Source: an uncultured Nitrososphaerales archaeon (GTDB lineage Archaea > Thermoproteota > Nitrososphaeria > Nitrososphaerales > Nitrososphaeraceae). From it: a stretch of 64,000 nucleotides of DNA. Under the pieces are notes generated by a model. The model ran no database searches. It was given only the letters and a program-made list of their open reading frames with translations, and was not told where the DNA came from. Location: contig CAVOHZ010000008.1 of the NCBI GenBank assembly GCA_963695855.1, positions 256,001-320,000 on the forward strand, given 5' to 3'. How positions within the stretch are numbered: position 1 is the stretch's first letter; the number at the start of each line of letters is the position of its first letter. The position numbers and the translations under genes were made by a program. Below, in pieces: positions 3,362-49,526 of the stretch.

Positions 3362-4248
3362 ATTGTATTATTTCTAGAATAATAAGAATAAATACAAATT
3401 TAAATATTTTCAAAACTTTAATTAAATTCATCTAATCTATTACAAAAAATAAGTCCTTTAAGTTAGGATAAACTGATTCTTTATCTTTATAAAGAAATAA
3501 ATTATATAACATAAAATTTCTCTGAAGTATCAAATGTACCTGGAAGATTTTATCCAAAGTAAATCTATGAATATATATGTTGCCTATTCTAATTCAGTTT
3601 AGGTTTTTGTTTTTTTTAAAACATGAAAAATTCATATTTCTAAGTTATATATTTTAAAGGCAAGAGTAAATCCTAATGCAAGGGACATGTCAAATTTGTG
3701 GTGCAAATAATGAAGAATTACAAGAAAAGAACTCATGATGGTCAAGTTGAAACGTATGTTATAATTAAGGATAATTATAAAGTAAAACATAAAAAAACTA
3801 ACAATAATTTAAAATGATTATCCTCTTTTTAAAATATTAAATAAAAAAATTATAATGAGCTATATTTTGCATTTATTCATTAACTCCATCATCCCAAAAA
3901 AACTGTAGTAACATTATCCAATCGATACTGCAACAGCAAAGTAGTATTAAAAGTATCTAATACAGGATTAGAACCAACGAGGATAGCATCGAATTTCTAT
4001 ATCTAAAGAACATCTTATGATTTTTAATATTTATGATCGATCTTATCAATATAAACAACACAATCTTCATGACCATATTATAAAATGAGTTGAGTTGAAT
4101 AATTGCTTCTTCAATATATCAAATGTCTCTGTCAAGTTAAGCAGTAAAAGCTATAGCTGAGAATATTCTCTTTATGACTTCAGCTAGTTAGTTCGTAAGA
4201 GTTAATATAATATCTTGTTTCATCAGAGCAATCCCATGACTAGCAGTA

Positions 4249-4273
4249 ACGGGTTCAAATCCCATCCTCTCCA
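4249..4273 (+). other. Orphan tRNA 3'-half-like sequence (T arm plus acceptor 3' strand)
   Basis: ACGGG-TTCAAAT-CCCAT-CCTCTCC-A; no matching GGAGAGG 5' strand seen upstream. Confidence 0.55.
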
Positions 4274-4333
4274 TTGAATGTTAGGTTCTAAGGATATTAG
4301 AAGTTCACATATTGGGGATTAAAAAGCGGAAAA

Positions 4334-4539
4334 GTTTGACTTGACTAAAATAGGGGTTGAACCACCAGGGATTGTATATAATCTCCGTTGGTAAAAGCAA
4401 GGTTTGAATTTGACTAAAATAGGTTTGAAACAAAGCAATTTATACTTAATTTGGATCATGTTTCACTCCCCGTTTGAATTTGACTAAAATAGTGTAATTT
4501 TTTGACACCGTTTGAATTTGACTAAAATAGGTTTGAAAC
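4334..4539 (+). CRISPR. Orphan CRISPR mini-array, 30-bp repeat GTTTGAATTTGACTAAAATAGGTTTGAAAC
   Basis: Repeats at 4334-4363 (degenerate), 4402-4431, 4472-4492 (truncated) and 4510-4539; spacers of 38 and 40 bp plus a 17-bp remnant; canonical GTTT...GAAAC ends; no cas genes recognised in the window. Confidence 0.85.
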
Positions 4540-12497: not shown

Positions 12498-12560
12498 TAA
12501 TACCGATAGAGGTACAAAAATAAGAGTCTACTGTATGGTAATAAATAAGATAATATTTAA
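12498..12560 (+). repeat. att-like arm A copy
   Basis: TAATACCGATAGAGGTACAAAAATAAGAGTCTACTGTATGGTA. Confidence 0.85.
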
Positions 12561-12727
12561 CAATTACTTTTGAACAATTATAAAAGTTTGAATTCTCTAA
12601 ATTTAGAAATAAGAAGAAAGAAGAAAATATTAAAATTAAAATAAGAAATTAAAATTTCAGGTATTTCTTGTTTTGAATTTCTTGTTTTGAAGTCTTGACA
12701 ATTAGTTAATCCTAGGCGTGATATACA

Positions 12728-12766
12728 GGAAGTAATACTGATAGCGGTTCTAAAATAAGAGTCCAA
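12728..12766 (+). repeat. att-like arm A copy (degenerate)
   Basis: GGAAGTAATACTGATAGCGGTTCTAAAATAAGAGTCCAA. Confidence 0.8.
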
Positions 12767-22607: not shown

Positions 22608-22664
22608 AATGCATAATACCTTCAACTTTAAAAAGATGTTGAAAATAATAAATGTAAGAAAATA

Positions 22665-22750
22665 GATGGGCGCTAGGAAACTGTGGGCCCGTGGGGAGTT
22701 GAACAGTTACCTTATCCATGTTCGGTAACAAAATATCACTAGAGTAATAA
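22665..22750 (+). repeat. att-like site: left arm, core and arm C (tRNA T-loop-like)
   Basis: TAGATGGGCGCTAGGAAACTGTGGGCCCGTGGGGAGTTGAACAG; reverse complement reads GTTCAACTCCCCACGGGCCCA. Confidence 0.85.
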
Positions 22751-22755
22751 ATTAA

Positions 22756-22959
22756 TTAAAAAAAATAATCTTTGACTACATGACCGCAATCACGGCACTC
22801 TAGCCAATCAAAAGAGTCGTGTGGTAGGTCACCATCAATTAATTCCTCCTTTCTTGTGAGGCGTGGACCCAATTGAACAGAAATTCCTTCTTCCAGGCAA
22901 CTAGGACACCAACTCGTATTAGGGATATTTTCTGTATTGGTTTTATCTAACATTCGCAA
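22756..22959 (-). CDS. Small CxxC...CxxC zinc-finger protein, copy 1
   Basis: WCPSCLEEG...LECRDCG; near-identical to 47059-47262. Confidence 0.75.
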   Translation of the reverse strand: MRMLDKTNTENIPNTSWCPSCLEEGISVQLGPRLTRKEELIDGDLPHDSFDWLECRDCGHVVKDYFF

Positions 22960-23071
22960 GGCAGATCACTAGACTAATAAAATTATATATGTATAATGAT
23001 ATAATCTTCAATTTCATTATACTATAACACATTAGATAGATAGAAACTCAGGAGGGTCTAAAACAAAGTAG

Positions 23072-23180
23072 TGCCCGAGGAAACTGTGGGTCAGTCGGGA
23101 GTAATACCGATAGCGGTGCAAAAATAAGAGTCTAATATCCAAGTCCTACTACTATCTTGTATTTAGCTTTTATTATTAAT
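23072..23180 (+). repeat. att-like site: left arm, core, arm A and arm-B tail
   Basis: GCCCGAGGAAACTGTGGGTCAGTCGGGAGTAATACCGATAGCGGTGCAAAAATAAGAGTCTAAT...CTACTATCTTGTATTTAGCTTTTATTATT. Confidence 0.9.
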
Positions 23181-24421: not shown

Positions 24422-25144
24422 GGTGCTGTTAACTTAAGGAAAGAGCTATAGCTGTGAAGGTTCTATTCTAACAATATATGCTGTTAAGATTTGTCAGAAA
24501 TAGAACATCCACATGTATAGTAATGTATTCTTTGTATTTGTACTTTCTTGGTCTCAGTCTACGTAATTCATCCAAAGCATTGGAACTGTTTAAGGACCAA
24601 AAAAGAAGTTATGTTGCTGTTTGGAAATGGATTCAACGATTTGGTTCATTACAGATTTACAAGAGAAAAAGAGTATCAGCATTCATCATAGATGAAACTA
24701 TAATTCAGATTGGTAATCAACATTTCTGGTTGTGGATCTGTATTGAACCTGTTCACAGATCTGTGCTTGGGATCTACATCTCAGAAGAGAGAAACATGTT
24801 TGTAGCAGAGAATTTTATCCGATCTCTTGTATCCAAATATGGTAGACATACAGTATACACAGATGGTGGTACGTGGTATCCACAAGCATGTAACTTTTTA
24901 AATCTGAAACATCGATTACATTCACCCTTAGAGAAAAGTCTGATTGAAAGAATGATGCAGTATTTCAAGGATAGGACAGAATCTTTTGATGATTACTATC
25001 CATGTATCAACAACCAAAAGAAAAATTGTGATCTACAACATGTATACAATTGGATCAAGTTATTCATATATCTGTATAATGCAAAAATCAGAAAGAAATT
25101 TCTATTCGAAATTGGAGGTGAAATAATCTTAAGTTAACAGCACC
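24422..25144 (+). mobile_element. Intact IS6-family element; transposase 24478-25137
   Basis: Perfect 17-bp inverted repeats GGTGCTGTTAACTTAAG at 24422-24438 and 25128-25144; DDE motifs. Confidence 0.93.
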
Positions 25145-25512: not shown

Positions 25513-26610
25513 TCATCGCCTCTCTGCCGCGAATTCCTTTGATAACGCTTCAATTAATTCTCGTTCCCTTGGATTTAGCTTATCAGGAACTCTTACGTTA
25601 ATGTGGACGAGCTCATCTCCTCGGCCTTGGCCATAGTTTATTCCTTCTCCCCTCAGCCGGAGCATCGTGCCGTTTTGAGTTCCGGGAAACACTTCGATTG
25701 TCCTCTCACTTGTTAGCGTCGGAATTTTTATCCGAGCTCCCAGAGCAGCCTGAGCAAAATTGATATTGGCTTCATATACAAGGTTAAACCCTTTCCTCGT
25801 CAGATATGGATGAGGTTTGATTTCTATCGTCAAGTAAAAGTCTCCAGGAGAGCCACCGTAAGGACCGTCTTCACCCTGTCCTCGCAGGACCAAATGGTCA
25901 CCATTATCAATGCCAGGAGGTACTTTAACTTTGATCCGTGTTCTATTTTCCTCAAGTCCATTACCTCCGCATATCTTGCAAGGCTTCTCGGCTACCTCTC
26001 CTCTGCCATTGCAGCGGCTACATGAAACTATCACCTGCCCAAATCCTGACACGACTTTGTGTTCAATTCTCCCCGATCCCCTGCATTCGGGGCAGATCAT
26101 CGACTTGCTATTTAACTCAACACCTGATCCTTTACACTTACTGCATCTCTTTAGCCTAGGTAGAGTAACTTCAAATTCAGTGCCAAAAGCCGCCTGTTCT
26201 AGCGTGATTACCGTCTTGGCTTCTAGGTCACGGCCATGATGGGACTGTTGTTGTTGATCCTGTTGAAAGGTGAAACCACCTCCTCGGAAGATTCGATTAA
26301 AGAGATCATCTGCATTAAATCCAAACTCTGAAAAGATATCTCGGAATGTTCCTCGGTTGAAGATGTCTTCCTGCTTGTATTGTTGCTTTATCCCTTCAAA
26401 GCCTTGTGCATCATATTGTTTCCTCTTGTCCGGATCTGACAGAATGGCATACGCTTCAGATACTTCCTTGAATCTTTCTTCAGCGTCGGACATCTTATTT
26501 CTATCGGGGTGATATTTGAATGCGAGCTTGCGGAATGCACGCTTGATTTCGTCTTTAGACGCATCCCGTCCAACCCCCAAGACATCATAAAAATCCAGTT
26601 TGTTGGCCAA
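25513..26610 (-). CDS. dnaJ: Class A J-domain chaperone DnaJ
   Basis: HPD motif, G/F-rich linker, four CxxCxGxG repeats, C-terminal domain. Confidence 0.96.
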
Positions 26611-26660
26611 ACTAAATCATCAGGAACAAATCAAAACAGAGTAAAAAAGAGAAGAATATG

Positions 26661-28544
26661 CTATTTCTTATCCTCGTCTACGACCCTGTACTCTGCCTCG
26701 ACTGTTTTCTTTCCTTGTTGCTGTTCTTCTTGAGGTGGTGGTGGAGCTTCCTGACTTGCTTTTTCCTGTGCTCTTTGAGATGCTGCCTGTTCGTAGATTG
26801 TCGCTCCTGCCTCTTGCACTACTCTTCTAAGCTCCTCAACCTTGGAGCTGATTTCGGCCAGACCTCCGGTCTTCAGGGAACCTTTTAGCGACTGAATGGC
26901 CTCCTCTAACTTGGCCTTTTGCTCTTGTGTGAGCTTGTCACCGATCTCTCTCAGCGTCTTTTCTGACGTGTAGATCACAGAGTCGGCCGTGTTTCGAATC
27001 TCTGCCTCTTCTTTAGCACGTTTGTCTTGCTCGTTGAATTGTTCTGCCTCTCTTATCATTCGATTCTTCTCAGTTTGACCAAGCTTGGTTGAAGCTGCAA
27101 TCTTGATACCCATCTGCTTGCCGGTTGCCAAGTCTTTAGCTGAAACGTTGAGAACACCATCTGCATTAATGTCAAATGTAACGTCTACCTGAGGGACGCC
27201 TCGAGGTGCAGGCGGAATGCCTGTCAGATCAAATCTTCCCAAGCTGATATCGTCCTTCGCCATAGTGCGTTCACCTTGAAGCACGTGTATTGTGACAGCC
27301 GTTTGAGAGTCAGCAGCAGTCGTGAATGTCTGACTCTGCTTAGTTGGTATCGTCGTGTTCCGCTCGATGATCTTGGTAAAGACGCCACCAAGGGTTTCAA
27401 CCCCCAGGGAAAGAGGTGTTACATCAAGGAGCACTATATCTGTAATCTCCCCTGAAATTACAGCTCCCTGAATGGCAGCACCAATGGCGACGCACTCCAT
27501 TGGGTCGATACTTCTCTCAGGCTTTTTTCCAATTATGTCTTCGATAAATTGTTGAACAAGTGGCATCTTCGTCTGTCCGCCTATAAGGATTATCTTGTCT
27601 ATCTGCACCGGCGTCAACTTTGCGTCTGATAAAGTTTTCAAAACAGGATCCCTAATCCTTTCCACTATGGGTCTAGTTAGTTGTTCTAGTTTGGATCTAG
27701 TTAGAGTCACATGGAGGTTCTTCGGGCCTGTAGCATCAGAGGTAATGTACGGGAGCTCTATGTCTGTGGTAATTAAGGTTGACAACGCTATCTTCGCTTG
27801 TTCGGCTGCCTCTTTCAAGCGAGCTATGGCTTTCATATCACCACTGAGGTCGATTCCAGTTTCTCGCTTGAATTCAGAGATTATATAATCCATCACCGCT
27901 TGGTCCAGGTCCGTTCCCCCTGTTTTCGTGTCTCCACTTGTGGCTAAAACCTCGAAAACGCCTCCCCCAAATTCCATCACCGTGGTATCGTTTGTTCCAC
28001 CACCGAAACTGAAGACCAGAATTTTTAATTCTTGTCCTGCTTTGTCTAGACCATAAGCCAGTGCTGCTGCCGTCGGCTCATTGACAACCCTTGTTATTTT
28101 TAGGCCTGCAATCTCGCCCGCATCTATCGTTGCTTGGCGCTCATTATCATTAAAATGTGCTGGAACAGTGATTACGGCTTTAGTAACCTTCTCACCGAGA
28201 AAGGTTTCAGCATCGCGCAGAATCTTCTGTAGGATGAAACCTGAGATTTGCTGTGGTGTGTACTCTTTGCCAAAGATATTTACCTTATTGTTTGTCCCCA
28301 TCTTGCGCTTTATTTCACGTATCGTACCCTCTGGGTTAACTATGGCTTGTCTTCTTGCTGGCTCACCGACAAGCAGTTGTCCGCCTTTAGTAAGAGCTAC
28401 AACAGAGGGGAACATTTTTCCTGCCGCGGTGGGTCCTTCAGCGCTTGGAATTATGGTCGGTTTTCCCCCGATAGTTACGGCCGCAGCAGAATTTGTAGTT
28501 CCTAGGTCTATGCCTAATACTCTTTCTCTTTTTTCGCTACTCAT
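26661..28544 (-). CDS. dnaK: Hsp70 chaperone DnaK
   Basis: [47 protein letters not shown]. Confidence 0.97.
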
Positions 28545-29109
28545 TTAGCCTCCCCCTCCTTGGAACATTAGAGCTCGGAATTGAAGATACTTTTACCATG
28601 CTTGGTTTTAGCAGATTCCCTCTAAAAAGGTAGCCCTTTCTGACCTCCTCTATAACTGTCCCTTCGGGATGATCTGACGTCTCAATTTCCAGTACAGCTT
28701 CATGTAAATGTGGGTCGAAAGGTTTTCCCACAGATTCTATAGGACACAATCCTTCGTTAGTCAGCACATTCCAGAGTTTTCTCCTAACCATTTCTATCGC
28801 CTCTAAGATGTTAGTATTAGCCATTTTTCTAGCCTCTTCTACGGCGAGATCGATTTCTTCTGCGACGAGTAGGATTTGCATGATGAGCCGCTTCTTTTCC
28901 TTTGTCACAGCATCATCGATTCGTCTCTCCGTGTTCTTTTGAAGGTTTTCAAGATCAGCCCTAGCATATTTAAGCTGGGTGAGGTAAGTGTCTTCAAGTT
29001 TGCTCATACGCTTTAGTGAAGCGTCAAGTTCAGAAACTTTTCTGATGTAACTAGCTTCTTTTTCATAGTTTTCATCGTTGGCATCTCCTTCATCGGAATT
29101 CGGACACAT
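28537..29109 (-). CDS. grpE: Nucleotide exchange factor GrpE
   Basis: [34 protein letters not shown]; overlaps the dnaK start. Confidence 0.95.
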
Positions 29110-33779: not shown

Positions 33780-34270
33780 CCTATCCCAAAATTATTCTCC
33801 TGTAGATAATAATGCTACTTGCTAATTTTACAAGACCCAGATAGTTCTCATCCTTCTTTTCATATCTTGTAAATAACTTCCTCAATCTGTTATGCCATGA
33901 ATTTGTTCTCTCTCTACAACCCATCTTCTTGCTGGATGTTTTCTACGAGATATTTGTTCTTCTCTTCTGTCTCTTATATGGGAAATATATCATCGCTTGA
34001 CAATTTCTTGTTCTATTTCTTTGGAATGATATGCTTTGTCAAGGCACAGGTTCTGTTTGTGTTTATGCTTTGGTTTGGATAATGATGGTCTTTTGATAAC
34101 CATGCTGTCAACTGTATTAATTGCAACAGTGACATCATAGTGAGTTTTTGCAGATGATATACTAGCAGATAGTGGAATACCACCATCTTTATCTGTAAGA
34201 ATCTGCCTTTTGGTTCCTAATTTACTCCTATCTGTAGGATTATGACCAGTCATCGCCCCCCTAAAGGAGA
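33780..34270 (-). pseudogene. IS5-family orfB remnant fused to the integrase 3' end
   Basis: MTGHNPTDRSKLGTKR...LCLDKAY; homologous to 15055-15471. Confidence 0.85.
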
Positions 34271-35544
34271 TGATTGAATTTGTTATTCATTTCTTCTCTT
34301 ATTTGTAGAATTTCTTGAGAATGTTTTTCTTCTAATACTATTAACTTTATATCTTCTTGACCTTTAATTTCATCAAATGCTTGCGGCGTTAAAGGATAGC
34401 TACATTTGGAACAGTATTTGTTCTCTATAGCATTAACTAAATCACACCGTGGACAGTTTATGGTTGATGACCTCTTTGTTATTTCACTTGCAGAAATTAT
34501 TCCATTATGTGTTAGAATTTTCTCTTTAAGATCGTTTCCCATTCTTCTCTTTATGTATCTTGTACCCTGCCTTGAATTCATTGACCATCTTACTTTTTTC
34601 TTCAGTGCATATTCTGGCAAATAATCGCTATCAGCTGTTATAGCACTGTGTCTAATACAGTAGGGGTTCCATTTCTTTGTTTTTAACAGATATTCCAGTT
34701 TTTCGTTTTCTGCTGTATCATTAACTTCTCCATTCTTCAACAAACGAATTATTCTTTCACGTAACTGTTTCATCATTTTGTCAATATTGTCTGGAGTTAT
34801 AGGTGAACCATTGATAAGATTACAAATCAGTCTTGCATCTAGTTCATTTCTAAATGGGTGTTCATTTAACCAATCACGAACATAAGGAAACGATATAGTA
34901 AGCAAGATAGGACCTGTTCCTGTTTTAGCTTCATAGGGTATTTCACCTTCACCATAATTTTCTTTTAATCTTACATGTTTTATCTTCAAAAGTGTAATTT
35001 CATGTGGTCTTGCATCTAGGTCCCAAAGTAACGCAAGAATTGCTTTATTTCTTTTGTATGATTCATACTTGATTATGGTTAATAGATCTTCTTTTTCCCA
35101 CAACTCATTTTCAAGATAAGGGCTAATCCTTTTACTTCCTTTCCTCTTTATTCTTACAAATTCAGGTGTTCGCCAATCGGAAAATGGAACATCATCCAGA
35201 GTTTTATCCTTACAGTTGTACATCCATCTGAAAAAATATTTGATCCTGCCAAGATAGTCGTTCCATGTTGTAATCCAGCGTTTGTCTTGATCTGTCTCTA
35301 TACTTTTTATTTGTGTGTCCAAAAAGGGAAATATTTGACTTTTCTCTCTGATTTGATAAAAGGAAACAGGTGATTCAAGGAATTTACTATATGCTATGAT
35401 TGCTTTCAAATTGTTATTCTGATATCTTTCTGATGTGCCAATTCTTTTCATAAAATCATAGAACTGCAATATTAATTGCTTATTTTCTACATTGTGAACA
35501 TCCCTTTCAATATTGCTTACTGTTGTAGAGAGTTTAACTGTCAT
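34261..35544 (-). CDS. Tyrosine recombinase/integrase with C-terminal double zinc ribbon; extreme C-terminus replaced by an IS remnant
   Basis: Catalytic pattern R (DARPHE), K, YCIRH, W (VRWS), Y (TRYI); CPRC...CSKC; likely start MTVKLS at 35544 behind AAGGAGG. Confidence 0.9.
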   Translation of the reverse strand: MTVKLSTTVSNIERDVHNVENKQLILQFYDFMKRIGTSERYQNNNLKAIIAYSKFLESPVSFYQIREKSQIFPFLDTQIKSIETDQDKRWITTWNDYLGRIKYFFRWMYNCKDKTLDDVPFSDWRTPEFVRIKRKGSKRISPYLENELWEKEDLLTIIKYESYKRNKAILALLWDLDARPHEITLLKIKHVRLKENYGEGEIPYEAKTGTGPILLTISFPYVRDWLNEHPFRNELDARLICNLINGSPITPDNIDKMMKQLRERIIRLLKNGEVNDTAENEKLEYLLKTKKWNPYCIRHSAITADSDYLPEYALKKKVRWSMNSRQGTRYIKRRMGNDLKEKILTHNGIISASEITKRSSTINCPRCDLVNAIENKYCSKCSYPLTPQAFDEIKGQEDIKLIVLEEKHSQEILQIREEMNNKFNHLL

Positions 35545-35610
35545 TTCTTGAACCTCCTTTTTTGTATGTCTACTATACTGTCGATACTTGTATATGAACC
35601 CGAATACATA

Positions 35611-35656
35611 ACGGGCCCGTCGGGAGTAATACCGATAGCGGTGCAAAAATAAGAGT
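35611..35656 (+). repeat. Consensus att-like core plus arm A directly upstream of the integrase
   Basis: ACGGGCCCGTCGGGAGTAATACCGATAGCGGTGCAAAAATAAGAGT. Confidence 0.92.
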
Positions 35657-36375
35657 ATATGAATTATGACCTAGTCTCAATTAATTAGTCTATTTTTTAC
35701 AAAGAAAATAATTATATTATTATATATAGATAGAAACTCAAGACTCTTACTCCAGAGTAGGCGTATTACTATATAGAACCTAAAATATGGATAATTGTAG
35801 ACACTAATAAACTTATTTTATTTAAATACAGAATAAAAAATAAAATTTGTGTACTTGTAAAATAATTAATTAATAAAAAGTAAATTTTAAATATTAAAAA
35901 CATGATTTGATTTTTTCCCTCAGTTCTGCTCCCAACGTTCTGATCTGCTCTGTTTTCTGTGCTTCCACAAAATTAGAAATTGATTGTAGTCATATGCCCA
36001 CTTACGCAAAATGAAGCTATAATTAATGCATTCAATGTTATTTTATTCCCTATCATTTTTTCCACTATTTTCATGCTACTTTATTGAATGCTAAATTTAG
36101 TTATTAAAAATTGATAACTTTTTAACTAATAAGTAGTCACTAAATTTCTAGTATAAATTTAACTATTAAGAACAAAATCTCTTTACTATCAAAACAAATA
36201 TTGTTTATATGGATTTGATGAAGACGAGACTATTCACAATTCATTATAAGATTTTACTATAAAATTTCTTTATATCTTTTTATAGGTAACAATAGTAATT
36301 AAATATTTTATATACCTTCTACCATGCGATAACCTACAAAATATTAAAAATGATATGTACTAAATTTGACGTACG

Positions 36376-39646: not shown

Positions 39647-39785
39647 ATTAGTCTCTAAAGCAGATTCCGCATAAATAATATTTGTCGCACATAGTGGACC
39701 TGAGAAAAGTACGGGCCCGTCGAGAGTGGATCCTTCCATGTAGTAGGGTTCACCCAACTTGTATATAGCTTTTATCATTAGGAAC
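39647..39785 (+). repeat. att-like site: long left arm, core and arm B
   Basis: ATTAGTCTCTAAAGCAGAT...GAGAAAAGTACGGGCCCGTCGAGAGTGGATCCTTCCATGTAGTAGGGTTC. Confidence 0.88.
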
Positions 39786-39924
39786 TTAAGTAAAATAATT
39801 GTACAATAACAGACTAATCTTCATTTGGTTCGATAGAATCATCTATAAATTTCAATACAATTGTTTTTCTTTTCTATCAAATATGAAATACTGTTTTATA
39901 CAACATGTGAAATAAAGCATTTTA

Positions 39925-40110
39925 TTGGAACAGAGAAGAATAGGAATAATTTTTATGGTGTTAGGCGCTGTCATGTTGGCAATTCCGTTAATTATAACTA
40001 TAACAGAGAATTCCATTCGAATATTTGTTCCAATGATTGGTTTACTATTTTTATTGTTTGGTTTTCCAATAATATTAAGTAGTAAGAAAGGCAAGAATAT
40101 AGAAAATTAG
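39925..40110 (+). CDS. Small two-TM membrane protein
   Basis: 61 aa; two hydrophobic helices and a basic tail. Confidence 0.6.
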   Translation: MEQRRIGIIFMVLGAVMLAIPLIITITENSIRIFVPMIGLLFLLFGFPIILSSKKGKNIEN

Positions 40111-40152
40111 ATAAATACAAACAAAATCTTCTACCATGATGAATATACAGAA

Positions 40153-40220
40153 TAATATCGATAGCGGTGCGAAAATAAGAGTCTAATGTATGGTACTAAA
40201 GAAGATAATATTTAGGATTT
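40153..40220 (+). repeat. att-like arm A copy
   Basis: TAATATCGATAGCGGTGCGAAAATAAGAGTCTAATGTATGGTA. Confidence 0.85.
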
Positions 40221-40957: not shown

Positions 40958-41682
40958 GGTCCTGTAAAGTTAAAATTATTTTACGCCCAATATTGAAAGG
41001 AATTCCTATCTAATCTTTGTATTATACAGATAAATGAATAACTTGATTCAATTATATACATGTAATATATTGCATTCTTCTCCTTCTGTTTTTCCAGATT
41101 GTTTACATGGATAATAATCATCAAAACATTCTGTCCTATCCTTGAGATACTGCATCACTCTTTCTATCAGACCTTTCTCTAAAGGTGAATGTAGATGATG
41201 TTTTAATCCAATTATATTGCATACTTCTGGATATCATGTTCCACGATCAGTATAAACTGGACGTCTTCCGTATTTCTCAACTAATGATCTAATAAATTTC
41301 TCAGCAACAAGCATATTTCTCTCTTGTAAAATATAGATTCCAAGTACAAATTTGTCAATTGGTTCAATAGAAATCCATAACCAAAAAGTAATGATTTCCT
41401 ATCTGAACAATAGTTTCCTCTATGATGAACGCTTATATTCTTTTTTTCTTGTAAATCTGCAATGAACCAAATCATTGAATCCAGTTTCATACAACAACAT
41501 AACTCCTTTTTTAATCGTTAAAAGGTTACAGTTCTTTTGACGTATTTCGTAGACTGAGATCAAATACAAATACAAAGAGTACATTACAGTGAATGCAGAT
41601 GTTCTATTTCTTTAAAATCTTAACAACATATTTTGTAGTAGAACATTCACAGATATAGTTCCTTCGTTAACTTAACAGAACC
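40958..41682 (-). pseudogene. IS6-family element, inactivated
   Basis: Both inverted repeats present; multiple frameshifts and stops; 3' two-thirds near-identical to 52745-53300. Confidence 0.85.
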
Positions 41683-41759
41683 ATCATTTACGTTCAACTA
41701 AATAGTCCAGATCAATAAAAACAGGATCACTGTAAATAAAATTAATGATAATGAGTGGC

Positions 41760-41860
41760 CCTAAATATTATTTCCTTATTACTATAACATTATACTGTTA
41801 TTTTTGCACCGCTATCGGTATTACTCCCGACTGGCCCGTACTTTTCTAGGGTTCACCTCA
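41760..41860 (-). repeat. att-like site (minus orientation): left arm, core and arm A
   Basis: TTATTTTTGCACCGCTATCGGTATTACTCCCGACTGGCCCGTACTTTTCTAGGGTTCACC. Confidence 0.9.
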
Positions 41861-42118
41861 TTTAGATATATTTAGTTAAAGGTAATTAGACGATTCATTA
41901 AGAGATCCGTTGAAATTCTTAAGTTACCATTTGAATTAATGGCTTATAAAATAAGGTTTAAACATATGTCTGTTGCTTTGGCCCAATCAAATAATAGGGT
42001 ATTATACCCCAAATTCTTCAAACATGAAAAATGCTTTTGCTTCCGTCTGATGTATAGAAGATTTTGTATTCTTTAACCACGTAGTGTTCTTAAATCTTTA
42101 ATTGAATTTTCAGGATAT

Positions 42119-42410
42119 TTGAGGATGCAGAAACAGAATCTATGTCTTGACAGGGCATATCATTCCAGAGAAGTAGAACAAGAAATTGTCAAGAGAGGAT
42201 ACATTCCACATATACGACATAGAAGAGAAGAAAAGAAACTGAACAAGAAATATCCTGCAGGAAGACGGGTACTTGAGAGAACAAACTCATGGCATAACAG
42301 ATACAGGAAATTGTTTACAAGATATGAAAAGAAGGTAGAAAACTATCTTGGTCTTGTGCAATTAGCAAATTGCATAATTGTTTATAGGATGATAATTTGG
42401 GTAGATTCTA
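42119..42410 (+). pseudogene. IS5-family orfB 3' fragment
   Basis: LCLDRAY...VLERTNSWHNRYRKLFTRYEKK; near-identical to 57834-58121. Confidence 0.85.
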
Positions 42411-42767
42411 ATTATAGTCAAAAACTTTCCCCTTGTTTATTATGATTTTTAATGTGGCATTGGTCAGAACAAAAATAATCATCACATATGTTACAATATA
42501 TTGGATAGTCTTGAATCTTCTTATAGCAGCTCGCACACGTGGTAGCCATATCCAAATTTTATTATCATACGATGTATTGTATTTCTTACTTACAAAGTTT
42601 TCTTTTTAGATTCAATATTATAGTTAAATAAATCTAGTCAATCGAAACTGGAAAAATGATTTATCTAAAATTGGTATATAGTTTTATTACAGAAGTAAAA
42701 TTTTACTTTAAATGAAAGGAAACGACTGACTAAAATACTGGAAGAGATCATCTACAAGATAATTGAT

Positions 42768-43418
42768 ATGAAAATTGGAATTATTGGAGCAGGTGATGTT
42801 GGCAGCACTCTAGGAAATAGGTGGATAAGAAAAGGAAATCAGATTTTCTTTGGAGTTAGAAACATCAATAGTTCTAAAGTTCAAAATATGTTAAAATCTC
42901 TAGGCTCCGATATTAAAGTTGGAACCATTAGCGAAGCAGCTTCGTTTGGAGATGTAGTAGTACTGTGCGTACCTTGGGAGGCAGCAAAAGAAACTATCGA
43001 AAATGCTGGAGATTTATCTGAAAAGATCTTGGTGGATCTTACTAATCCAATTAGTAAAGATCTAAAAAGTTTAGTAGTCGAACCTTCAACATCAGCTGCT
43101 GAAGAGATTGCAAGATGGTGTAAAGGTTCTAAGGTGGTGAAAGCATTTAATGCCATAGGTGCGAAGACTATGAATGACCTCCAATTTGATTCTTATAGAG
43201 CAGATACTTTTATTTGCGGAGACGATTTTAAAGCAAAATCCGTAGTAACGAAATTAGCAAAAGAAGTAGGTTTTGATGTTGTAGATGTTGGTCCTCTTAT
43301 TAATGCAAGACTGCTGGAACAATTGGCGTTATTGTGGATTGAATTGGTCATTAGACAGAAAATGGGACCAAACATTGCTTTTAAACTCTTGAAAAGAAGA
43401 CCTCGTTTGGAGATGTAG
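42768..43418 (+). CDS. F420-dependent NADP oxidoreductase family protein
   Basis: IGIIGAGDVG Rossmann motif, LVDLTNP, SAAEEIA, VVKAFN, CGDD, DVGPL. Confidence 0.9.
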   Translation: MKIGIIGAGDVGSTLGNRWIRKGNQIFFGVRNINSSKVQNMLKSLGSDIKVGTISEAASFGDVVVLCVPWEAAKETIENAGDLSEKILVDLTNPISKDLKSLVVEPSTSAAEEIARWCKGSKVVKAFNAIGAKTMNDLQFDSYRADTFICGDDFKAKSVVTKLAKEVGFDVVDVGPLINARLLEQLALLWIELVIRQKMGPNIAFKLLKRRPRLEM

Positions 43419-43861
43419 TAGTACTGTGCGTACCTTGGGAGGCAGCAAAAGAAACTATCGAAAATGCTGGAGATTTATCTGAAAAGATCTTGGTGGATCT
43501 TACTAATCCAATTAGTAAAGATCTAAAAAGTTTAGTAGTCGAACCTTCAACATCAGCTGCTGAAGAGATTGCAAGATGGTGTAAAGGTTCTAAGGTGGTG
43601 AAAGCATTTAATGCCATAGGTGCGAAGACTATGAATGACCTCCAATTTGATTCTTATAGAGCAGATACTTTTATTTGCGGAGACGATTTTAAAGCAAAAT
43701 CCGTAGTAACGAAATTAGCAAAAGAAGTAGGTTTTGATGTTGTAGATGTTGGTCCTCTTATTAATGCAAGACTGCTGGAACAATTGGCGTTATTGTGGAT
43801 TGAATTGGTCATTAGACAGAAAATGGGACCAAACATTGCTTTTAAACTCTTGAAAAGAAGA
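42942..43861 (+). repeat. Apparently exact 459-bp tandem duplication (42942-43400 and 43403-43861)
   Basis: Seen directly; the units are separated by CC. Confidence 0.92.
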
Positions 43862-43942
43862 GGTGGAATGTAATATTAATTGCATATTTTCTTGTTTTGG
43901 TCATTAATTTCAATATTATTAATCTTTGTAGATAGTTAACAG

Positions 43943-44672
43943 GGTGCTGTTAACTTAAGTTGGTTCGTCTCCTAATTTGAGGGATAGAGTTTCATTTCTC
44001 ATTCCTGAATTATAGAAATATACAAATAATTTCATGCAATTGTAAATATGTGATAGACCACAATTTTTCTTTATTGTTATTGTTCTTACAAGGATAGTAA
44101 TCATCAGAAGATTCAATTCTGTCCTTGAAATATTGCTTTACCCTTTCAATCAAACTCTTTTCTATGGTGAATGCAAGCGATGTTTCAAATGTAAGAAATG
44201 ACATGCTTGTGGATACCAAGTACCACCATCTGTATAAACTATATGTCTTCCATATTTGTCAACCAAAGAATTGATAAAATTATTTGCTACAATCATGTTT
44301 CTCTCTTCTGAAATATAGATTCCAAGTACAGATCTATGAATCGGTTCGATTACAATCCATAACAAAAAATGTTGACCACCAATCTGAATTATAGTTTCAT
44401 CTATGATGAATACAGATATTCTTCTGTGTTTGTTATATATTTGGCATGAACCAAATCGTTGAATCTACTCGCACACAGCAACATAACTTCTTTTTTTGTT
44501 CCTTAAATGGTTCCAATGCATTAGACGTATTTCGTAGACTGAGGCCAAGAAAGTATAGATAAAGAGAATACATTACCATAACTGTGGATGTTCTATTTCT
44601 AATGAATTTAATAAGCATAGATTAGAAATAATACATTAGCATCTAAATCTATTTCCTTAAATTAACAGGTAC
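43943..44672 (-). pseudogene. IS6-family element, frameshifted
   Basis: Three partial ORFs; inverted repeat GGTGCTGTTAACTTAAG at 43943. Confidence 0.85.
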
Positions 44673-44863
44673 AATTAGTGTGTAGCTTAATTCAACAATA
44701 ATAAATTTTATTCATAAACAAATTATGCTACAACAATATGAACTTGTTATATAACATTATCTTTACAGTAGTCGCCATCCTTTGCATACTAAATTTTTTT
44801 GATAGTAAATGTTCGACCAATACACGTTTTAACGATGAAAAGAGATTATATAATTTTCTCAAT

Positions 44864-45166
44864 TTATCTACTACATGTAGGAAGTAAATCTAAATGAAAT
44901 TTAGAATCCTCTTGATCGACTAATGTCCACCTTCCATACGTTATAGTATCTACTTTAAGACGAATAATCTTGCCTAATCTATCGGTAAAAATATTGACTA
45001 CGTCGTCTATTGTACTATTTCGGAGTTTCATTCTAATCTCTTCAATGGTAAATTCGATATCCGTTTCGTGCCTTTTAGGACTTGTATCATGATCATTCAT
45101 AATCACACTATGTACGTGTCCTTTTTTGTCTTTTTTGACGCATTTTATGTAAATGTTATGACTCAT
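44864..45166 (-). CDS. Hypothetical protein, DUF3892-like
   Basis: IYIKCVKKD N-terminus and LDLLPTC C-terminus resemble DUF3892. Confidence 0.5.
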   Translation of the reverse strand: MSHNIYIKCVKKDKKGHVHSVIMNDHDTSPKRHETDIEFTIEEIRMKLRNSTIDDVVNIFTDRLGKIIRLKVDTITYGRWTLVDQEDSKFHLDLLPTCSR

Positions 45167-45729
45167 GATATATACTCACCTCGCTACTAAATATATCATA
45201 TATCAAATAGAGAACGTGAAATTAAATAACCATTTCATATGTAAATGACTTTATATGTTATTTAATAATAATTCTAAATATCGTATCCTATTTTTCAACC
45301 TTCTTAGATACACAATATGAAATTACCTTCGGTTGTAATGCACTACATAAGAGGCAGAAATGCCACTCGATCCGAATGGCCCGTTTTTATCAGTGTTCGT
45401 ATACATGTGTATTTTTATAATATTTGTAATAATGAGTTACTCTCATAGTTTAAAAAATGTATGAGCAAATTGAAACCGCTGAAAGTAATTTAAATAAAAA
45501 TTTGATAGGAATTTTCAAAATATCTAGTCTCAAAAGATACAAGTGCAAATTATCAGAGAAACTGTATCAAAGTTATGTTGATGTTTGCAGATTTTTTACA
45601 GTCAAGAAAATAGGTAAGCAACTTAACAGTAGTAAATTCTTTTGATGATATTATAGCATTTTTGAATACAAGAAGAAAAAACAAAGATGAAGACTTCTAG
45701 TTCTATTATTGTCTAAAACTTATGAATCG

Positions 45730-45790
45730 CTACATTAGACTCTTATTTTCGCACCGCTATCGGTGTTACTGTCTCCTGCAGATATTTCAC
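45730..45790 (-). repeat. att-like arm A copy (minus)
   Basis: ATTAGACTCTTATTTTCGCACCGCTATCGGTGTTACT. Confidence 0.88.
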
Positions 45791-45911
45791 CTGTCTATAC
45801 TTTTAAAGTATCCAAAATCAATCTTATCAAGTTCTAATTATGACTATACTATTTTTAAAAATAATTTAATATTTTATATAGATAAACAAAAGAAGAATAT
45901 GACGATATTTA

Positions 45912-46607
45912 TCACATAACAATTAAGCGATTAACAATTCCATATACTTGCTGATTTCCAAAATGATTTCCTGTATCTTTATCATCTGGGTCAATAGTTA
46001 TTGTATTGCCTTTAGAAATGGTTATTGATACTTCTGCATGACTCCATCTAGTTATGCCATTTATTTTAATATCAGCGGTTCCATTTATTGATAAACTGTT
46101 ATTACTATTATTATCTGATGTAGATAGAATTATCACGCCTCCATCATCTTCATTTGCACTAAAGTTTGTTATTTGATGAATATGTCCCATTGAACCATCC
46201 ATAGGCGATGCCAAAAAACTTGCTTCAAAGTTTGTTACATTTCCATTATGGACATTTAAAATCCAGTCTCCAGTTAATATTACTTTGAATGCATTTGTTA
46301 TATTGAATTTATCTTCAGGAACTGTTATAACTAAAGAGCTTATTGTTCCTATAGCAGAAAAAGTTGTGCTCCTATTGCTATTACTACTACTATTTATTAC
46401 AGATTGAGTATTTAGATTCATTTTTTGATTTGTATCTTTATCTTTTTCCATTTGAGCAAATACAATAAATGATGATTCATAATCACCATAATTGTTTCTA
46501 ATCATGGCAAATGTAACTATAGATAATGATAGCACAAGGAATATTGTCGTTATAACTTTAGTTATAGTATTGAATGATGATGACGACAATACTCTTGTTG
46601 TAAACAT
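45912..46607 (-). CDS. Secreted thaumarchaeal hypothetical protein
   Basis: N-terminal TM; ILTGDW...DGSMGHIH...NHFGNQQVYG pattern. Confidence 0.75.
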   Translation of the reverse strand: MFTTRVLSSSSFNTITKVITTIFLVLSLSIVTFAMIRNNYGDYESSFIVFAQMEKDKDTNQKMNLNTQSVINSSSNSNRSTTFSAIGTISSLVITVPEDKFNITNAFKVILTGDWILNVHNGNVTNFEASFLASPMDGSMGHIHQITNFSANEDDGGVIILSTSDNNSNNSLSINGTADIKINGITRWSHAEVSITISKGNTITIDPDDKDTGNHFGNQQVYGIVNRLIVM

Positions 46608-46839
46608 TATTATCGTTATTCTTAATTCTATTATAAATATCTAAAATAATTAGCTTATTATATGGTAAACTAAAGATGTAAATTTCTATTATACTTCTTA
46701 CCGTCCTTTATATTAGACTTTACCTAAGAAAAGTTATTATCCTTCTTGTTTCCTTTCTAATAAAACATGTAATTTTTCATCATTCATTATCTTTTCAAAT
46801 AAAAAAGGAACATAGAAAACAAGAAGTGACTGATAACTG

Positions 46840-46945
46840 ATAATAAAATCTAAATACAAGATAGTAGTATCTCTACAATAAACTCTTATTTTTGCACCGC
46901 TATCGGTATTACTCCCAACGGGCCCAACGTTTCCTCGGGCACTAC
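46840..46945 (-). repeat. att-like site (minus): left arm, core, arm A and arm-B tail
   Basis: ACTCTTATTTTTGCACCGCTATCGGTATTACTCCCAACGGGCCCAACGTTTCCTCGGGCAC. Confidence 0.9.
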
Positions 46946-47058
46946 TTTGTTTTAGACCCCCTTGAGTTTCTATCTATCTATCTAATGTTGTTATAGTATA
47001 ATGAAATTGAAGATTATATCATTATACATATATAATTTTATTAGTCTAGTAATATGCC

Positions 47059-47262
47059 TTGCGAATGTTAGATAAAACCAATACAGAAAATATCCCTAAT
47101 ACGAGTTGGTGTCCTAGTTGCCTGGAAGAAGGAATTTCTGTTCAATTGGGTCCACGCCTTTACAAGAAAGAGGAATTAATTGATGGTGACCTACCACATG
47201 ATTCTTTTGATTGGCTAGAGTGCCGTGATTGCGGTCATATAGTCAAAGATTATTTTAATTAA
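47059..47262 (+). CDS. Small zinc-finger protein, copy 2
   Basis: Near-identical to 22756-22959. Confidence 0.75.
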   Translation: MRMLDKTNTENIPNTSWCPSCLEEGISVQLGPRLYKKEELIDGDLPHDSFDWLECRDCGHIVKDYFN

Positions 47263-47274
47263 TTAACTAATTTA

Positions 47275-47405
47275 TTACTCTAGTGATATTTTGTTACCGA
47301 ACATGGATAAGGTAACTGTTCAACTCCCGACTGGCCCGTAGTTTTCTACGGCCCACTATATACGATAAATATTATTTATGCATCATCTGCTTTAGAGACT
47401 AATAT
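47275..47405 (-). repeat. att-like site (minus): long left arm, core and arm C
   Basis: GTTCAACTCCCGACTGGCCCGTAGTTTTCTACGGCCCACTAT...TCTGCTTTAGAGACTAAT. Confidence 0.88.
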
Positions 47406-48091
47406 GTTTTTAGAGTTTAAAACCGATAAGATACACAAAATTCATATAATAAATGGAGATTTATAATACTGCAATATATTATTTTATAAAAACACTCCAC
47501 AATAAAAAAAATTATTATGAATAGGAGAAAGGATTTGTCTGCTAGAATTGACAATTAAAAAACATAAGCTAGTTGGTGTAGAAACTGTCTTTTCTATATC
47601 AAGAATATTTGGAAATATGTTACTCCCATTACACTCTTTTTATTCTAAGTTTACATCTGTCTAACATTTCATCTACAGTGTCAGTATCATTTTTGTTTTA
47701 TGCATTTCATTCAATTATTTTAACTAGTTTTATGCTAAATTTTTTTATCCGGTTAAAAATAAGGATAGCATCTGTTCCATCAAAAAAACAACAATAGGAA
47801 AGAAAGAAACAGATAATTCGATATGAAAAAGAAAAGGTAAGGATTACAAACTTTGATATTGTAATTACGAATGATGTAAATTTTGATTCAAGTTAGAGCA
47901 AATATGTTAAACGTTATTATAGTAATCATTAATTGTCAAGCTTCATACGATCAATATGTTATTTTAAGACTGATAAAAACACTTATGGATTATGAAACAA
48001 AAAATTTTGATTCTATAAATAATTCCAAAATTCTAATACATAGAGAATATCTTTTTACATAATTGATAAAAATAATTTGTTTGTTTGATAA

Positions 48092-49024
48092 TTATTGACA
48101 GAATTTTCTTAGTTCTTTAACAAATTCAATAGTTTTGTTTACATCATAATTTTTTTCTGCATTCATGGCAAGAATTACTCTATCTACGCCAGATCTTTCG
48201 AGCATAGATAAATCAGAACCAATTTCATCAATTGTTTCTCCAGTCATAGGAGACCGATTACTTTTTTTTTCAGAGCTACTTCCCACAAGATAAGGAAATG
48301 TTAAAATAGTTAGATCAAAATCCTTCCTTTCTCTTGTACTTTTTTTAATCGAATCATTGAACATTTTAATGGAATTTTCAAAATATTCAAATGATCCTGC
48401 TAAGGTTCCTATATAACCATCTCCATATTTTATCATACGCTCAAACGTCTTTGGCGAGAAACCCCCAAGAAAAATTTTAGGGTGAGGTTTTTGAATAGGC
48501 TTTGGATCAATTATTGACTTCGGAATTTTGTAAAAGTCTTCATTAAATTCTACAATGTCTTCTGTCCATACCTTTTTCATAGCTTTGAGAATTTCGTTTG
48601 CTCTTTCTCCTCTTTTCTCATAAGGAATATTAGCGGCAAGATACTCATCTTTTGACCATCCAATACCAAAACCACAGATTGTCCTACCTTCAGATAAAAT
48701 GTCTATTGTAGTAAACTCTTTAGCAAGTGTTATAGGATTATGAAAAATCATATCAATAATACAAGTTCCTAAATTTACCTTTGTTGTATTAGCCGCAATA
48801 AATGCTAATGTTGTTAATGGATCTAAAACATTCTTAAAAAATTCAGGCCATTCTCTTTTATCTGGAGTCCCGGGATACGGCTGTTGGGGATTGAGAGCAT
48901 ATAGCATTCTATCATATACCCAAAGTGATTCAAATCCTTCTTGTTCTGCAAGTTGAACAAATCTAATTAGATTTTCTTTAGTAGCATTTATGCCAAATTG
49001 AGGAACAGCTAATCCTACTTTCAT
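48092..49024 (-). CDS. LLM-class F420-dependent oxidoreductase
   Basis: AEQEGFESLWVYD, LDPLTTLAFIAANT, LSEGR...GIGW, PKPIQKPHP. Confidence 0.92.
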   Translation of the reverse strand: MKVGLAVPQFGINATKENLIRFVQLAEQEGFESLWVYDRMLYALNPQQPYPGTPDKREWPEFFKNVLDPLTTLAFIAANTTKVNLGTCIIDMIFHNPITLAKEFTTIDILSEGRTICGFGIGWSKDEYLAANIPYEKRGERANEILKAMKKVWTEDIVEFNEDFYKIPKSIIDPKPIQKPHPKIFLGGFSPKTFERMIKYGDGYIGTLAGSFEYFENSIKMFNDSIKKSTRERKDFDLTILTFPYLVGSSSEKKSNRSPMTGETIDEIGSDLSMLERSGVDRVILAMNAEKNYDVNKTIEFVKELRKFCQ

Positions 49025-49085
49025 ATCTATTATTAATTTTTATACTATAAAGACATAATGTAATCAATATTAGTATCTATTTTTC

Positions 49086-49526
49086 TTAATTAGAATATTT
49101 CCAACTTATAGTCTTTTGAATATCAATTATAATGCAAATGTCTCCAATTCCTACCATTTTTTTATACTGAAGATATTTTTCTGACAATAGTGAATGAGCT
49201 TTTTCTATCGTATCTCTATCTTTTAACCTATTTACTATTTTTGCTTTACCTTGGATTATTAAATAAGAAAGATTACTCCAGTCTTTATCGTCATATGTAT
49301 CAATTAGAAAAGAAATATTAGGATTTTTTTGTATATTTTTTACTCTTTTTAACTGGTTTGAATTTACCCTTTTAGGTTTGTCATCTATTGGAATGAAGAT
49401 ATTATTACCATCAAATGCAAATACCACGGGTATTAGGTAAGGTTGATTAATCTCAGGATCTACTGTTGCTAATCTGGCTATTTTTGAATTATTCAAATTT
49501 TCTAATGTTTTTCTGTTTTGCATCAA
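49086..49526 (-). CDS. PPOX-class (pyridoxamine 5'-phosphate oxidase-like) probable F420-dependent enzyme
   Basis: ARLATV, PYLIPVVFA, IDDKPK, LKRVKNIQKNP, DWSNL. Confidence 0.88.
   Translation of the reverse strand: MMQNRKTLENLNNSKIARLATVDPEINQPYLIPVVFAFDGNNIFIPIDDKPKRVNSNQLKRVKNIQKNPNISFLIDTYDDKDWSNLSYLIIQGKAKIVNRLKDRDTIEKAHSLLSEKYLQYKKMVGIGDICIIIDIQKTISWKYSN

Follow-up and report, generated by a model that had tools for sequence, protein, structure and literature searches.

A duplicated single-gene cassette between attachment-like sites derived from tRNA-Lys in a Nitrososphaerales archaeon

Why should a segment of about 500 bp with one small gene occur twice, in opposite orientations, in one region of an archaeal genome, and was it recombination at specific sites that placed it there? 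The question is raised by contig CAVOHZ010000008.1 (C8 below) in the assembly GCA_963695855.1 of an uncultured Nitrososphaerales archaeon, a genome (G000) of 3.55 Mb in 11 contigs with approximately 31% G+C. The window analysed here is the whole stretch of 64,000 nucleotides at C8:256001-320000; its own numbering is used throughout, and positions elsewhere are preceded by the contig. A preliminary description had noted a zinc-finger mini-cassette bounded by sites resembling phage attachment (att) sites and had taken it for a mobilised cassette. Here, the bounding cores are identified with the 3′ end of a tRNA-Lys(UUU) gene, and the cassette is read, with reasonable if limited confidence, as an integrase-less mini-element similar to the cis-mobilisable elements (CIMEs) of bacteria, moved by recombination at the att cores.

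The two copies and their layout

A single BLASTN alignment of window 22662-23176 with the reverse complement of 46840-47359 contained 482 identical columns out of 525 (92%) and 15 gap columns, which bears out the inverted repeat of about 500 bp described previously; a repeat search reported the same pair in two pieces, I3 (284 nt, 94%) and I22 (119 nt, 87%). Each copy holds an intact open reading frame (ORF) of 67 aa when read from a TTG or 65 aa from an ATG, with the CxxC...CxxC pattern already noted, and is flanked by two cores on the same strand (from 22685 and 23088 in copy 1, and from 47337 and 46925 in copy 2). The core-to-core length is 403 bp in copy 1 and 412 bp in copy 2. In the orientation of the core, the cassette consists of a core, arm C (30 nt), a promoter-like motif, the gene on the opposite strand, a conserved upstream region of approximately 95 nt, an inner L1-type arm (38 nt) and the second core (Table 1). 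The zinc-ribbon gene is the only ORF of at least 60 aa between the cores, and the cassette encodes no integrase. No transposase or insertion sequence (IS) end was found inside it, as had been stated, the closest IS-type ORF being at 24478-25137.

Homology between the copies stops at the core and arm modules. Past the tail of arm A 16 of 36 columns agree, past the outer L1 flank 23 of 35, and no further similarity between the flanks was found beyond the site modules. Within the repeat, identity is highest in the inner part (376/398), in the stretch 22700-22731 with arm C (32/32) and in arm A (32/34), and lower in the cores (13/15 and 12/15), the outer L1 (17/23) and the tail of arm A (33/42). 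The arm A and tail of copy 2 are closer to C8:193510-193586 (94.8%) than to copy 1, and its outer L1 extends over 82 nt at 85% identity with the site at window 39727.

That one copy is an artefact of assembling a repeat-rich region is very improbable. Arm A is highly repeated (bin depth 759 in run X1) and contigs do break there; against this, the copies differ at 43 of the 525 alignment columns and have different flanks, and both outer flanks of copy 2 have orthologues in G014, another species of the genus. At copy 1, contigs from three public soil runs, each belonging to a different study, span the junction leading from a cation-efflux gene into L1, core and arm C, and misassembly of this copy, which had been named as a way to refute the description, is therefore rejected. 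The evidence from public runs consists of assembled Logan contigs, none with more than 43% of the words, in which rare forms such as circles are invisible. Contigs from RNA runs cover 22803-23099 at depth 2, which is no demonstration of transcription.

Table 1. Coordinates of the two cassette copies and of related features in the window.
Feature	Position	Strand	Remark
Copy 1 outer L1-type flank (P′-type arm of neighbouring unit)	22662..22684	+	L1 family member
Copy 1 att core, arm-C side, GGGCCCGTGGGGAGT	22685..22699	+	1 mismatch to tRNA-Lys 3′ end
Copy 1 arm C, P-type, hairpin GAACA..TGTTC	22700..22729	+	lengthens similarity to tRNA T loop by TGAAC
Promoter-like motif TTATTACTCTAGTGAT, downstream of gene, facing core (C8:278750)	22735..22750	-	motif search
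Copy 1 zinc-ribbon gene, 65 aa	22756..22953	-	ATG at 22953, stop 22756-22758
Conserved upstream region of gene, with promoter-like motif 22965-22980	22954..23049	-	common to C10 paralogues and orthologues in other species
Copy 1 inner L1-type arm (P′ arm of cassette)	23050..23087	+	34/38 identical between copies
Copy 1 att core, arm-A side, GGGTCAGTCGGGAGT	23088..23102	+	
Copy 1 arm A (23103-23136) and tail, P arm of next unit	23103..23178	+	49 arm-A copies in genome
Tyrosine-recombinase-type integrase	34261..35544	-	80% identical (341/427) to integrase adjacent to tRNA-Lys
attP-like site beside integrase: L2 flank, perfect core 35613-35627, arm A	35594..35661	+	
Second mini-cassette: arm B, small membrane-protein ORF, L5, arm A	39728..40187	+	
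IS6-like copy, inverted partner of 52643-53300	40958..41611	-	repeat I1, 565 nt 99%
Copy 2 arm A (46877-46910) and tail	46840..46910	-	from 46920 outward orthologous to G014:C23:81494-81827
Copy 2 att core, arm-A side, GGGCCCGTTGGGAGT	46911..46925	-	
Copy 2 inner L1-type arm (46926-46963) and upstream region of gene (46964-47064)	46926..47064	-	
Copy 2 zinc-ribbon gene, 65 aa	47065..47262	+	
Copy 2 arm C (47293-47322) and att core (47323-47337, GGGCCAGTCGGGAGT)	47293..47337	-	
Copy 2 outer L1-extended flank	47338..47443	-	orthologue in G014:C69 joined at core to different arm and cargo
IS6-like copy, other bracket of five-site minus-strand segment	52643..53300	+	

Cores, arms and the integrase family

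The core GGGCCCGTCGGGAGT had 11 matches with at most three mismatches in the window, against 0.04 expected from 100 shuffles, and the cores bounding each copy differ from it at one or two positions. A genome-wide scan gave 30 cores with at most two mismatches, one of which continues directly into the body of a tRNA. In reverse complement, the core equals the final 15 nt of the tRNA-Lys(UUU) gene C8:2734-2821, located 253 kb upstream on the same contig; these nucleotides take in three bases of the T loop and the 3′ strands of the T and acceptor stems. ARAGORN labelled this tRNA 'tta' with a 14-nt intron (Rfam score 56.8 bits); we read the loop as C-U-UUU-A with the intron after position 37, giving Lys(UUU). 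Its 3′ end ACTCCCGACGGGCCC is found in this one only of the 36 tRNAs listed by ARAGORN, and four relatives have the same tRNA-Lys with an identical 3′ end. In the window itself, no RNA family reached the Rfam gathering score and no tRNA was called by ARAGORN. Integration at this target has been seen before: the parts of a survey of thaumarchaeal elements drawn on here (Krupovic 2019, PMC6563490; Table S2 and supplementary file 3) list three Nitrososphaerales elements at tRNA-Lys(TTT) with att sites containing GGGCCCGTCGGGATT or GGGCCCGTGGGGAT, and give, for this phylum, a median att length of 17 bp and a share of 57% of integrations in tRNA genes.

The sequences on either side of the core form recurrent modules. 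Directly after the tRNA-Lys gene lies L2 followed by an integrase gene in G000, L1 in the relative G017, and L3 in G014 and G005. The L flanks are thus what follows tRNA-Lys in one species or another, and we therefore read them as P′ (or B′) arms; arms A, B and C flank the core on its opposite side and are read as P arms. These are also the three main L-side flank types of G000, where L1 occurs opposite each of the three arms, L3 opposite arm A, and L2 opposite arm A or the tRNA. Other tRNAs with an integrase of this family have GGGTTCA approximately 11 nt beyond the tRNA end, as in L1 and L2. Conservation is higher in the arms than in the stretch of core adjoining them, and the arms have defined outer ends beside varied cargo, a pattern that suggests selection for function. 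Arm C has only two copies in the genome, with arm-C-like versions in G014 and in the metagenome contig L026. In sites with a partial core the arm-adjacent bases (G)GGAGT are always retained, and the crossover would therefore probably lie near the arm-proximal end of the core.

An ORF of 448 aa begins 71 nt past the tRNA-Lys gene and has a weak match to PF00589 (E 5.6e-4). A paralogue beside a tRNA-Arg gene on C10 is 59% identical to it and scores above the PF00589 cut-off, and the related ORF in the window matches phrog_1 'integrase' (E 3.8e-7). The L2 beside this window integrase is the same 40-nt flank as the one after tRNA-Lys, with arm A on the other side of the core, and this arm A-core-L2 arrangement has the layout of an attP site. 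The order arm A, core, L2 and integrase was also found in G014 and G012, hence in three species in all. Adjacency to an integrase thus holds for the array (at tRNA-Lys and at the site at window 35613) and not for the cassette.

Such sites are numerous and locally oriented alike. G000 contains 74 arm sites (49 A, 23 B and 2 C), 28 of them with a full core, grouped into clusters within which all sites point the same way. Two such clusters have 11 sites each on the minus strand, one at C8:21.8-43.7 kb, downstream of tRNA-Lys (itself on the plus strand), and the other at C10:839-946 kb. The junction of GGGAGT with arm A occurred in all 25 genus genomes searched, in 1 to 69 copies each, and a reversed control pattern had no match. 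Among the 150 junction matches listed of 381, the contigs with at least two sites were co-oriented in 21 of 21 cases. The window has 14 sites on the plus strand and five on the minus strand, the latter including copy 2 and all lying within 41523-52735, between the two inverted IS6-like copies. From this we infer one IS-mediated inversion, before which the two cassettes were direct repeats; the inverted arrangement of the copies is thus probably secondary. No matching 8-mers were found as target-site duplications at the IS pair, so it is the pattern of orientation that argues for the inversion.

Together, the identity of the core with the 3′ end of tRNA-Lys(UUU), the integrase family, the co-oriented arrays and the breaks in synteny between species at the cores (described below) make it well supported on sequence grounds that the cores are genuine att sites, as the first description had supposed. 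It is improbable that the modules are instead a MITE-like (miniature inverted-repeat transposable element) transposing family, or a family of tRNA-derived small RNAs or regulatory sequences, with the zinc-finger gene merely lying between two of them. The copy number is high enough for such a family (74 arm sites here, 1 to 69 junction matches per genus genome), yet strict co-orientation over tens of kb would be unexpected for transposition, and the orientation of sites is independent of that of the genes, which lie on both strands. Hairpins occur in the arms, promoter-like motifs in or near them, and an 8-bp inverted repeat GAACCCTA/TAGGGTTC brackets L1 and arm B; the units, however, have no target-site duplications or terminal inverted repeats, their ends being direct repeats, and no Rfam family was matched. 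Nor would that account predict L flanks equal to the sequences after tRNA-Lys in other species, or sites adjoining integrase genes.

The promoter-like motif TTATTACTCTAG[CT]GAT had 44 matches with at most two mismatches in the genome. The cassette has it twice, once upstream of the zinc-ribbon gene and once, directed towards the core, in the interval from the gene to arm C; elsewhere it precedes a tRNA-3′-like core followed by a P′ arm and an integrase (e.g. C10:1773123 and C10:1678029). It may, speculatively, be a promoter that drives transcription across a joined att site. A repeated unit of approximately 130-200 nt starts from this motif and has a long hairpin, CCGGAGTAGAAGG...CCTTCTTCGTTCCGG (C10:276303, C10:1191421, C3:467101, L024:4370-4590 and L026). 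A small CxxC ORF lies divergently upstream of the unit, which has no Rfam match and in other species sits between the zinc-ribbon gene and arm C.

Two ideas about the cores were dropped. Arm C with its core is not the 3′ half of a split tRNA, as no 5′ acceptor strand and no Rfam tRNA match were found. The core linked to arm C in G014, GCGCCCGTGCGGAGT, does not track the tRNA-Lys of that species, which ends as in G000; it is either decayed or derived from another target. At C10:756848-756912 (L005:14848-14912), the promoter-like motif is followed by GGGTTCAAATCCCGACGGCCCC, which resembles the T arm and acceptor 3′ strand of a tRNA 3′ half. There is no 5′ half, and neither ARAGORN nor Rfam calls a tRNA there; the locus is an att remnant left by a different element, or else something more unusual.

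Further observations concern the arrays. At window 12499-12734, two arm-A sites lie 235 bp apart with no ORF between them, apparently an empty array unit. Genes for DnaJ, DnaK and GrpE at 25513-29109, with 39-46% G+C in a region of 28% G+C, lie between the att sites 23103 and 33351 with IS copies flanking, and may be cargo of a mobile element. The segments 41787-42398 and 57842-58453 are an inverted duplication (98%) containing a transposase fragment and an L1-core-arm A site, one copy being inside the inverted segment and the other outside. The Lys-type clusters at C3:68-83 kb, C6:94-110 kb and C10:839-946 kb adjoin other tRNA genes (Met, Arg and Val) and are oriented as if extending from these tRNAs, whose 3′ ends differ.

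Junctions between species and the origin of the second copy

Comparison of the window with G014 showed that homology ends at a core in four places. The integrase fragment, L2 and core of window 35203-35627 correspond to G014 3920-4336 and are followed by arm A in the window and an arm-C-like sequence in G014. Arm A, its tail and ORF231 (window 46920-46579) are 91.5% identical to G014:C23, and are preceded by the cassette here and by a different flank there. Window 47443-47315 is 90% identical to G014:C69 through L1 and the core as far as GGGAGTTGAA, after which a different arm and cargo follow, and the fourth match, of window 55570-56102, stops at TCGGGAGT. Copy 2 thus has outer boundaries that are both conserved elsewhere, and the 402 nt between them are not. 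The earlier claim of mobilisation finds its support in these flank orthologues joined to other partners at the core, as a matter of comparison; a circle, an empty site or an excision product was not found.

The gene itself provides a second line of evidence. In G014 and L026 it is followed by a structured repeated unit of 265-285 nt, an arm-C-like sequence, a core, L2 and the 5′ fragment of an integrase gene. As the gene and arm C abut core, L2 and integrase fragment in both, the cassette of the window is read as a shortened P-arm end of an integrase-bearing element; no full-length parent element with the zinc-ribbon gene was found. L026 has an additional arm A-core-L1 site approximately 300 nt upstream of the gene, and its core-to-core unit is 757 bp. 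The expectation that homologues in other genomes would also lie between such sites is thus borne out by L026 (arm A-core-L1 on one side, arm C-core-L2-integrase fragment on the other) and fails at the loci without a core that are counted below.

A third line is the second mini-cassette, of approximately 0.43 kb, whose ORF encodes a small membrane protein with two helices and about 51 residues. Two more full copies lie at C8:23392-22906 (89.6% over 490 nt) and C10:926020-925550 (90.9% over 471 nt) and a partial one at C10:947096-946823, so that the genome has 3 to 4 copies. On its left, each full copy is joined at the start of arm B to a partner unrelated to those of the other two.

According to the favoured reading, the cassette would be the P-arm end of an integrase-bearing element of which the rest was lost. 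The row of sites around it would be the product of tyrosine-recombinase elements directed at the 3′ end of tRNA-Lys(UUU). An integrase supplied in trans would have recombined at the cores, either excising a circle of approximately 0.4 kb that was re-inserted or exchanging att sites directly, and the second copy would have been placed into another L1-core-arm A site of the same row. Copy 2 would then have been flipped by a later inversion between the two IS6-like copies. The pattern of divergence between the copies would fit a unit placed into two distinct pre-existing L1-core-arm A sites. The copies being approximately 5% diverged and the cores mutated, the event is suggested to be old and the cassette may no longer move.

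A number of observations, beginning with that divergence, count against this reading. The same pattern would also fit gene conversion templated by L1-core-arm A modules, and as the repeated stretch takes in the outer modules, conversion templated by att modules or break repair would look alike. Each copy has two cores that differ from one another by 2 to 3 bases, and recombination could be blocked if these bases fall within the overlap region. In assembled contigs of the public runs, which are blind to rare forms, neither copy was seen as a circle junction, in tandem or with its site empty, and the copy 1 junction was stable in the three soil runs. One contig joins 22699 to 23106 with 31 nt on one side, and may come from any L1-core-arm A family site. 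The outer flanks of copy 2 lie on different G014 contigs and hence provide no empty site. Nor was one found for copy 1: in five relatives (L019-L023), the sequence examined around the cation-efflux orthologue contained neither core nor arm, and what lies downstream of it is unrelated. Of five further loci with the zinc-ribbon gene that were examined, three (L010, L025 and the trio L027-029, whose identical members are treated as one) lack a core in the vicinity. Finally, the window integrase is a very divergent putative integrase (PF00589 E 0.031), with no relative among solved structures in a sequence search.

Several of the same facts bear on a passive origin, in which decayed tRNA-Lys integrations acquired a second cassette copy by homologous recombination, gene conversion or IS-driven rearrangement with no site-specific mobilisation. 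We hold this to be on the unlikely side. The outer homology of the family (approximately 23-65 nt of L1 and 75 nt of arm A and tail) could template a conversion, but synteny between species breaks within a few bases of the core/arm boundary at four sites, and the second mini-cassette is joined at the same point to its three unrelated left partners. Decay is evident in the divergence of the copies, in core mutations mostly towards A/T, in the IS-rich and rearranged region and in the fragmentary integrase copies adjoining the gene in G014 and L026; the arms, on the other hand, are better conserved than the adjoining core, with defined outer ends beside varied cargo, and the array includes a full-length integrase accompanied by a perfect attP-like site. 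The part of a review drawn on here (PMC8371274) counts homologous recombination between elements in tandem among the routes of module exchange.

A bolder extension of the favoured reading, possible but held only tentatively, is that the genus runs an integron-like exchange of single genes built on a phage-type att site. Genes with a full P arm (A, B or C, approximately 30-85 nt) and an L-type P′ arm would be excised and put back in trans by a lambda-like integrase working without a directionality factor, and each of the dozens of tRNA-Lys 3′ ends that share one orientation could serve as the landing site. The zinc-ribbon and small-membrane-protein cassettes would be the smallest working units, and an outward promoter in the P arm would switch on genes across the core, including the integrase when the ends are joined.

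Elsewhere in the window, 42942-43241 and 43403-43702 are a 100% identical direct repeat 461 bp apart, in or by a gene resembling F420-dependent oxidoreductases (42768-43418), which looks like a recent tandem duplication. Five 18-nt tandem units at 897-1011 lie at the start of ORF 917-1540. Genetic code 4 was tried and table 11 kept, since reading TGA as W did not lengthen long ORFs.

The encoded protein and comparison with known systems

The zinc-ribbon protein (65 aa) has 13 acidic and 6 basic residues. The block from its upstream region to approximately 35 nt past the stop codon is common to the C10 paralogues and to orthologues in G014, L010, L025 and L026. The genome has nine paralogous loci, two of them within elements carrying a PriX-primase and an integrase (L003 and L004). 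At C10:687822-689351, a tRNA-Ser(GGA) gene, an integrase fragment and a zinc-ribbon paralogue stand in a row, a remnant element with the small gene after the integrase. Between the two copies of the cassette, the only frame-changing difference is a compensating pair of 1-nt indels, and the six pairs compared all had pN/pS values of 0.20-0.34; purifying selection therefore acts on the gene. Close homologues were found only in Nitrososphaeraceae or as unnamed metagenome proteins, and a profile run against 1.84 billion representatives had 20 hits, among them proteins of 125-166 aa that carry the domain at their N-terminus. Pfam gave zinc-ribbon hits below threshold only (best HVO_0758, E 0.0013, 18.9 bits against a cut-off of 27), no Pfam domain was detected in any of 12 longer relatives, and PHROGs had no match for the small protein. 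An Atlas search with it returned unnamed clusters only, at 0.92, and its AlphaFold2 model was weak (pLDDT 60.6), with nothing in a Foldseek search of PDB at E≤0.001 and only generic zinc ribbons among the hits that fell short of this cut-off.

The protein had been proposed as either cargo or a recombination directionality factor (RDF). The latter role is not supported, as the protein is acidic and has no match to an Xis-type family, and according to the review cited above (PMC8371274, drawn on in part) characterised archaeal integrases integrate and excise without such a factor. The position of the gene beside arm C and the core in the window, G014 and L026 is by itself no proof of an RDF function, and predictions of a complex with the integrase, which scored 0.00 in two runs, are uninformative on binding. 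Cargo or accessory gene of the element is the safer reading, and we treat this conserved acidic small zinc-ribbon protein, typical of these elements, as a putative accessory or regulatory gene product.

One of the closest parallels is with CIMEs and tandem accretion as known from ICESt1 and ICESt3 of Streptococcus (PMC5704250, drawn on in part). In both cases related elements are stacked one behind another where the target gene has its 3′ end, with a chimeric att site separating each from the next, and the cassette, like a CIME, has two cores, an inner P′-type and an inner P-type arm and no recombinase. The present units differ in being archaeal, of approximately 0.4 kb, with a single small gene and no conjugation module, and in having dozens of att sites per genome instead of two or three; their cis-mobilisation is inferred. 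The tycheposon islands of Prochlorococcus (bioRxiv 10.1101/2020.12.28.424599, likewise in part) are also built by tyrosine-recombinase elements integrating serially at tRNA genes, with scattered partial tRNA copies and integrase fragments, and duplication with an associated inversion has been seen there. They belong to another domain and another integrase family, and mobility was demonstrated in them by PCR and re-sequencing, in contrast to the comparative evidence here; conserved P and P′ arm modules beside many cargos, and recurring single-gene units with complete arms, set the present system apart.

Closest in host and target are ThaMY3-E1, NitEve-E1 and NitGar-E5, which share the host order and the target tRNA-Lys(TTT), have near-identical att sites and for which tandem integration is noted (PMC6563490). 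These elements have an integrase and measure 16-27 kb, and the survey has none smaller than 2.6 kb, whereas the cassette is integrase-less and of approximately 0.4 kb; the parts of the survey drawn on here make no mention of arrays with tens of att sites or of integrase-less units below one kilobase. Likewise, no description of such arrays or units was found in the portion of the literature on ammonia-oxidising archaea covered here. The ssrA islands of Dehalococcoides (PMC3146451, in part) stack at the 3′ end of a small RNA gene in the same way, each bounded by an end repeat, but with tmRNA as target, a bacterial host and a different recombinase. With tRNA-targeting integrative elements in general, the cassette shares a core identical to a tRNA 3′ end and direct core repeats, and lacks an integrase of its own.

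In function, integrons are alike in having a co-oriented row of sites that separates small exchangeable gene units, and a tyrosine recombinase. Here, in contrast, each site combines a core derived from a tRNA with a lambda-like arm (A, B or C) and is not a folded attC site, and the genes lie on both strands with their own promoters, the zinc-ribbon gene keeping its conserved upstream region. No IntI-type integrase or attI/Pc platform was identified, the IntI-specific domain not having been searched for. If the units still move, single genes would be shuffled in an integron-like manner within islands of ammonia-oxidising archaea that also carry the DnaK-DnaJ-GrpE set, transporters and redox enzymes, and the system would offer a tractable archaeal integrase with arm-type sites, short substrates and an identified enzyme. 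If they no longer move, the islands are a well-preserved record of serial integration and of later reshaping by IS elements. Integration at tRNA-Lys(TTT) in Nitrososphaerales was known already, as were tandem accretion and integrase-less derivatives in bacteria. New are the tens of co-oriented att sites per genome, with such sites in all 25 genus genomes searched, the conserved arm modules beside varied cargo, and the one-gene units of approximately 0.4 kb that recur with different neighbours.

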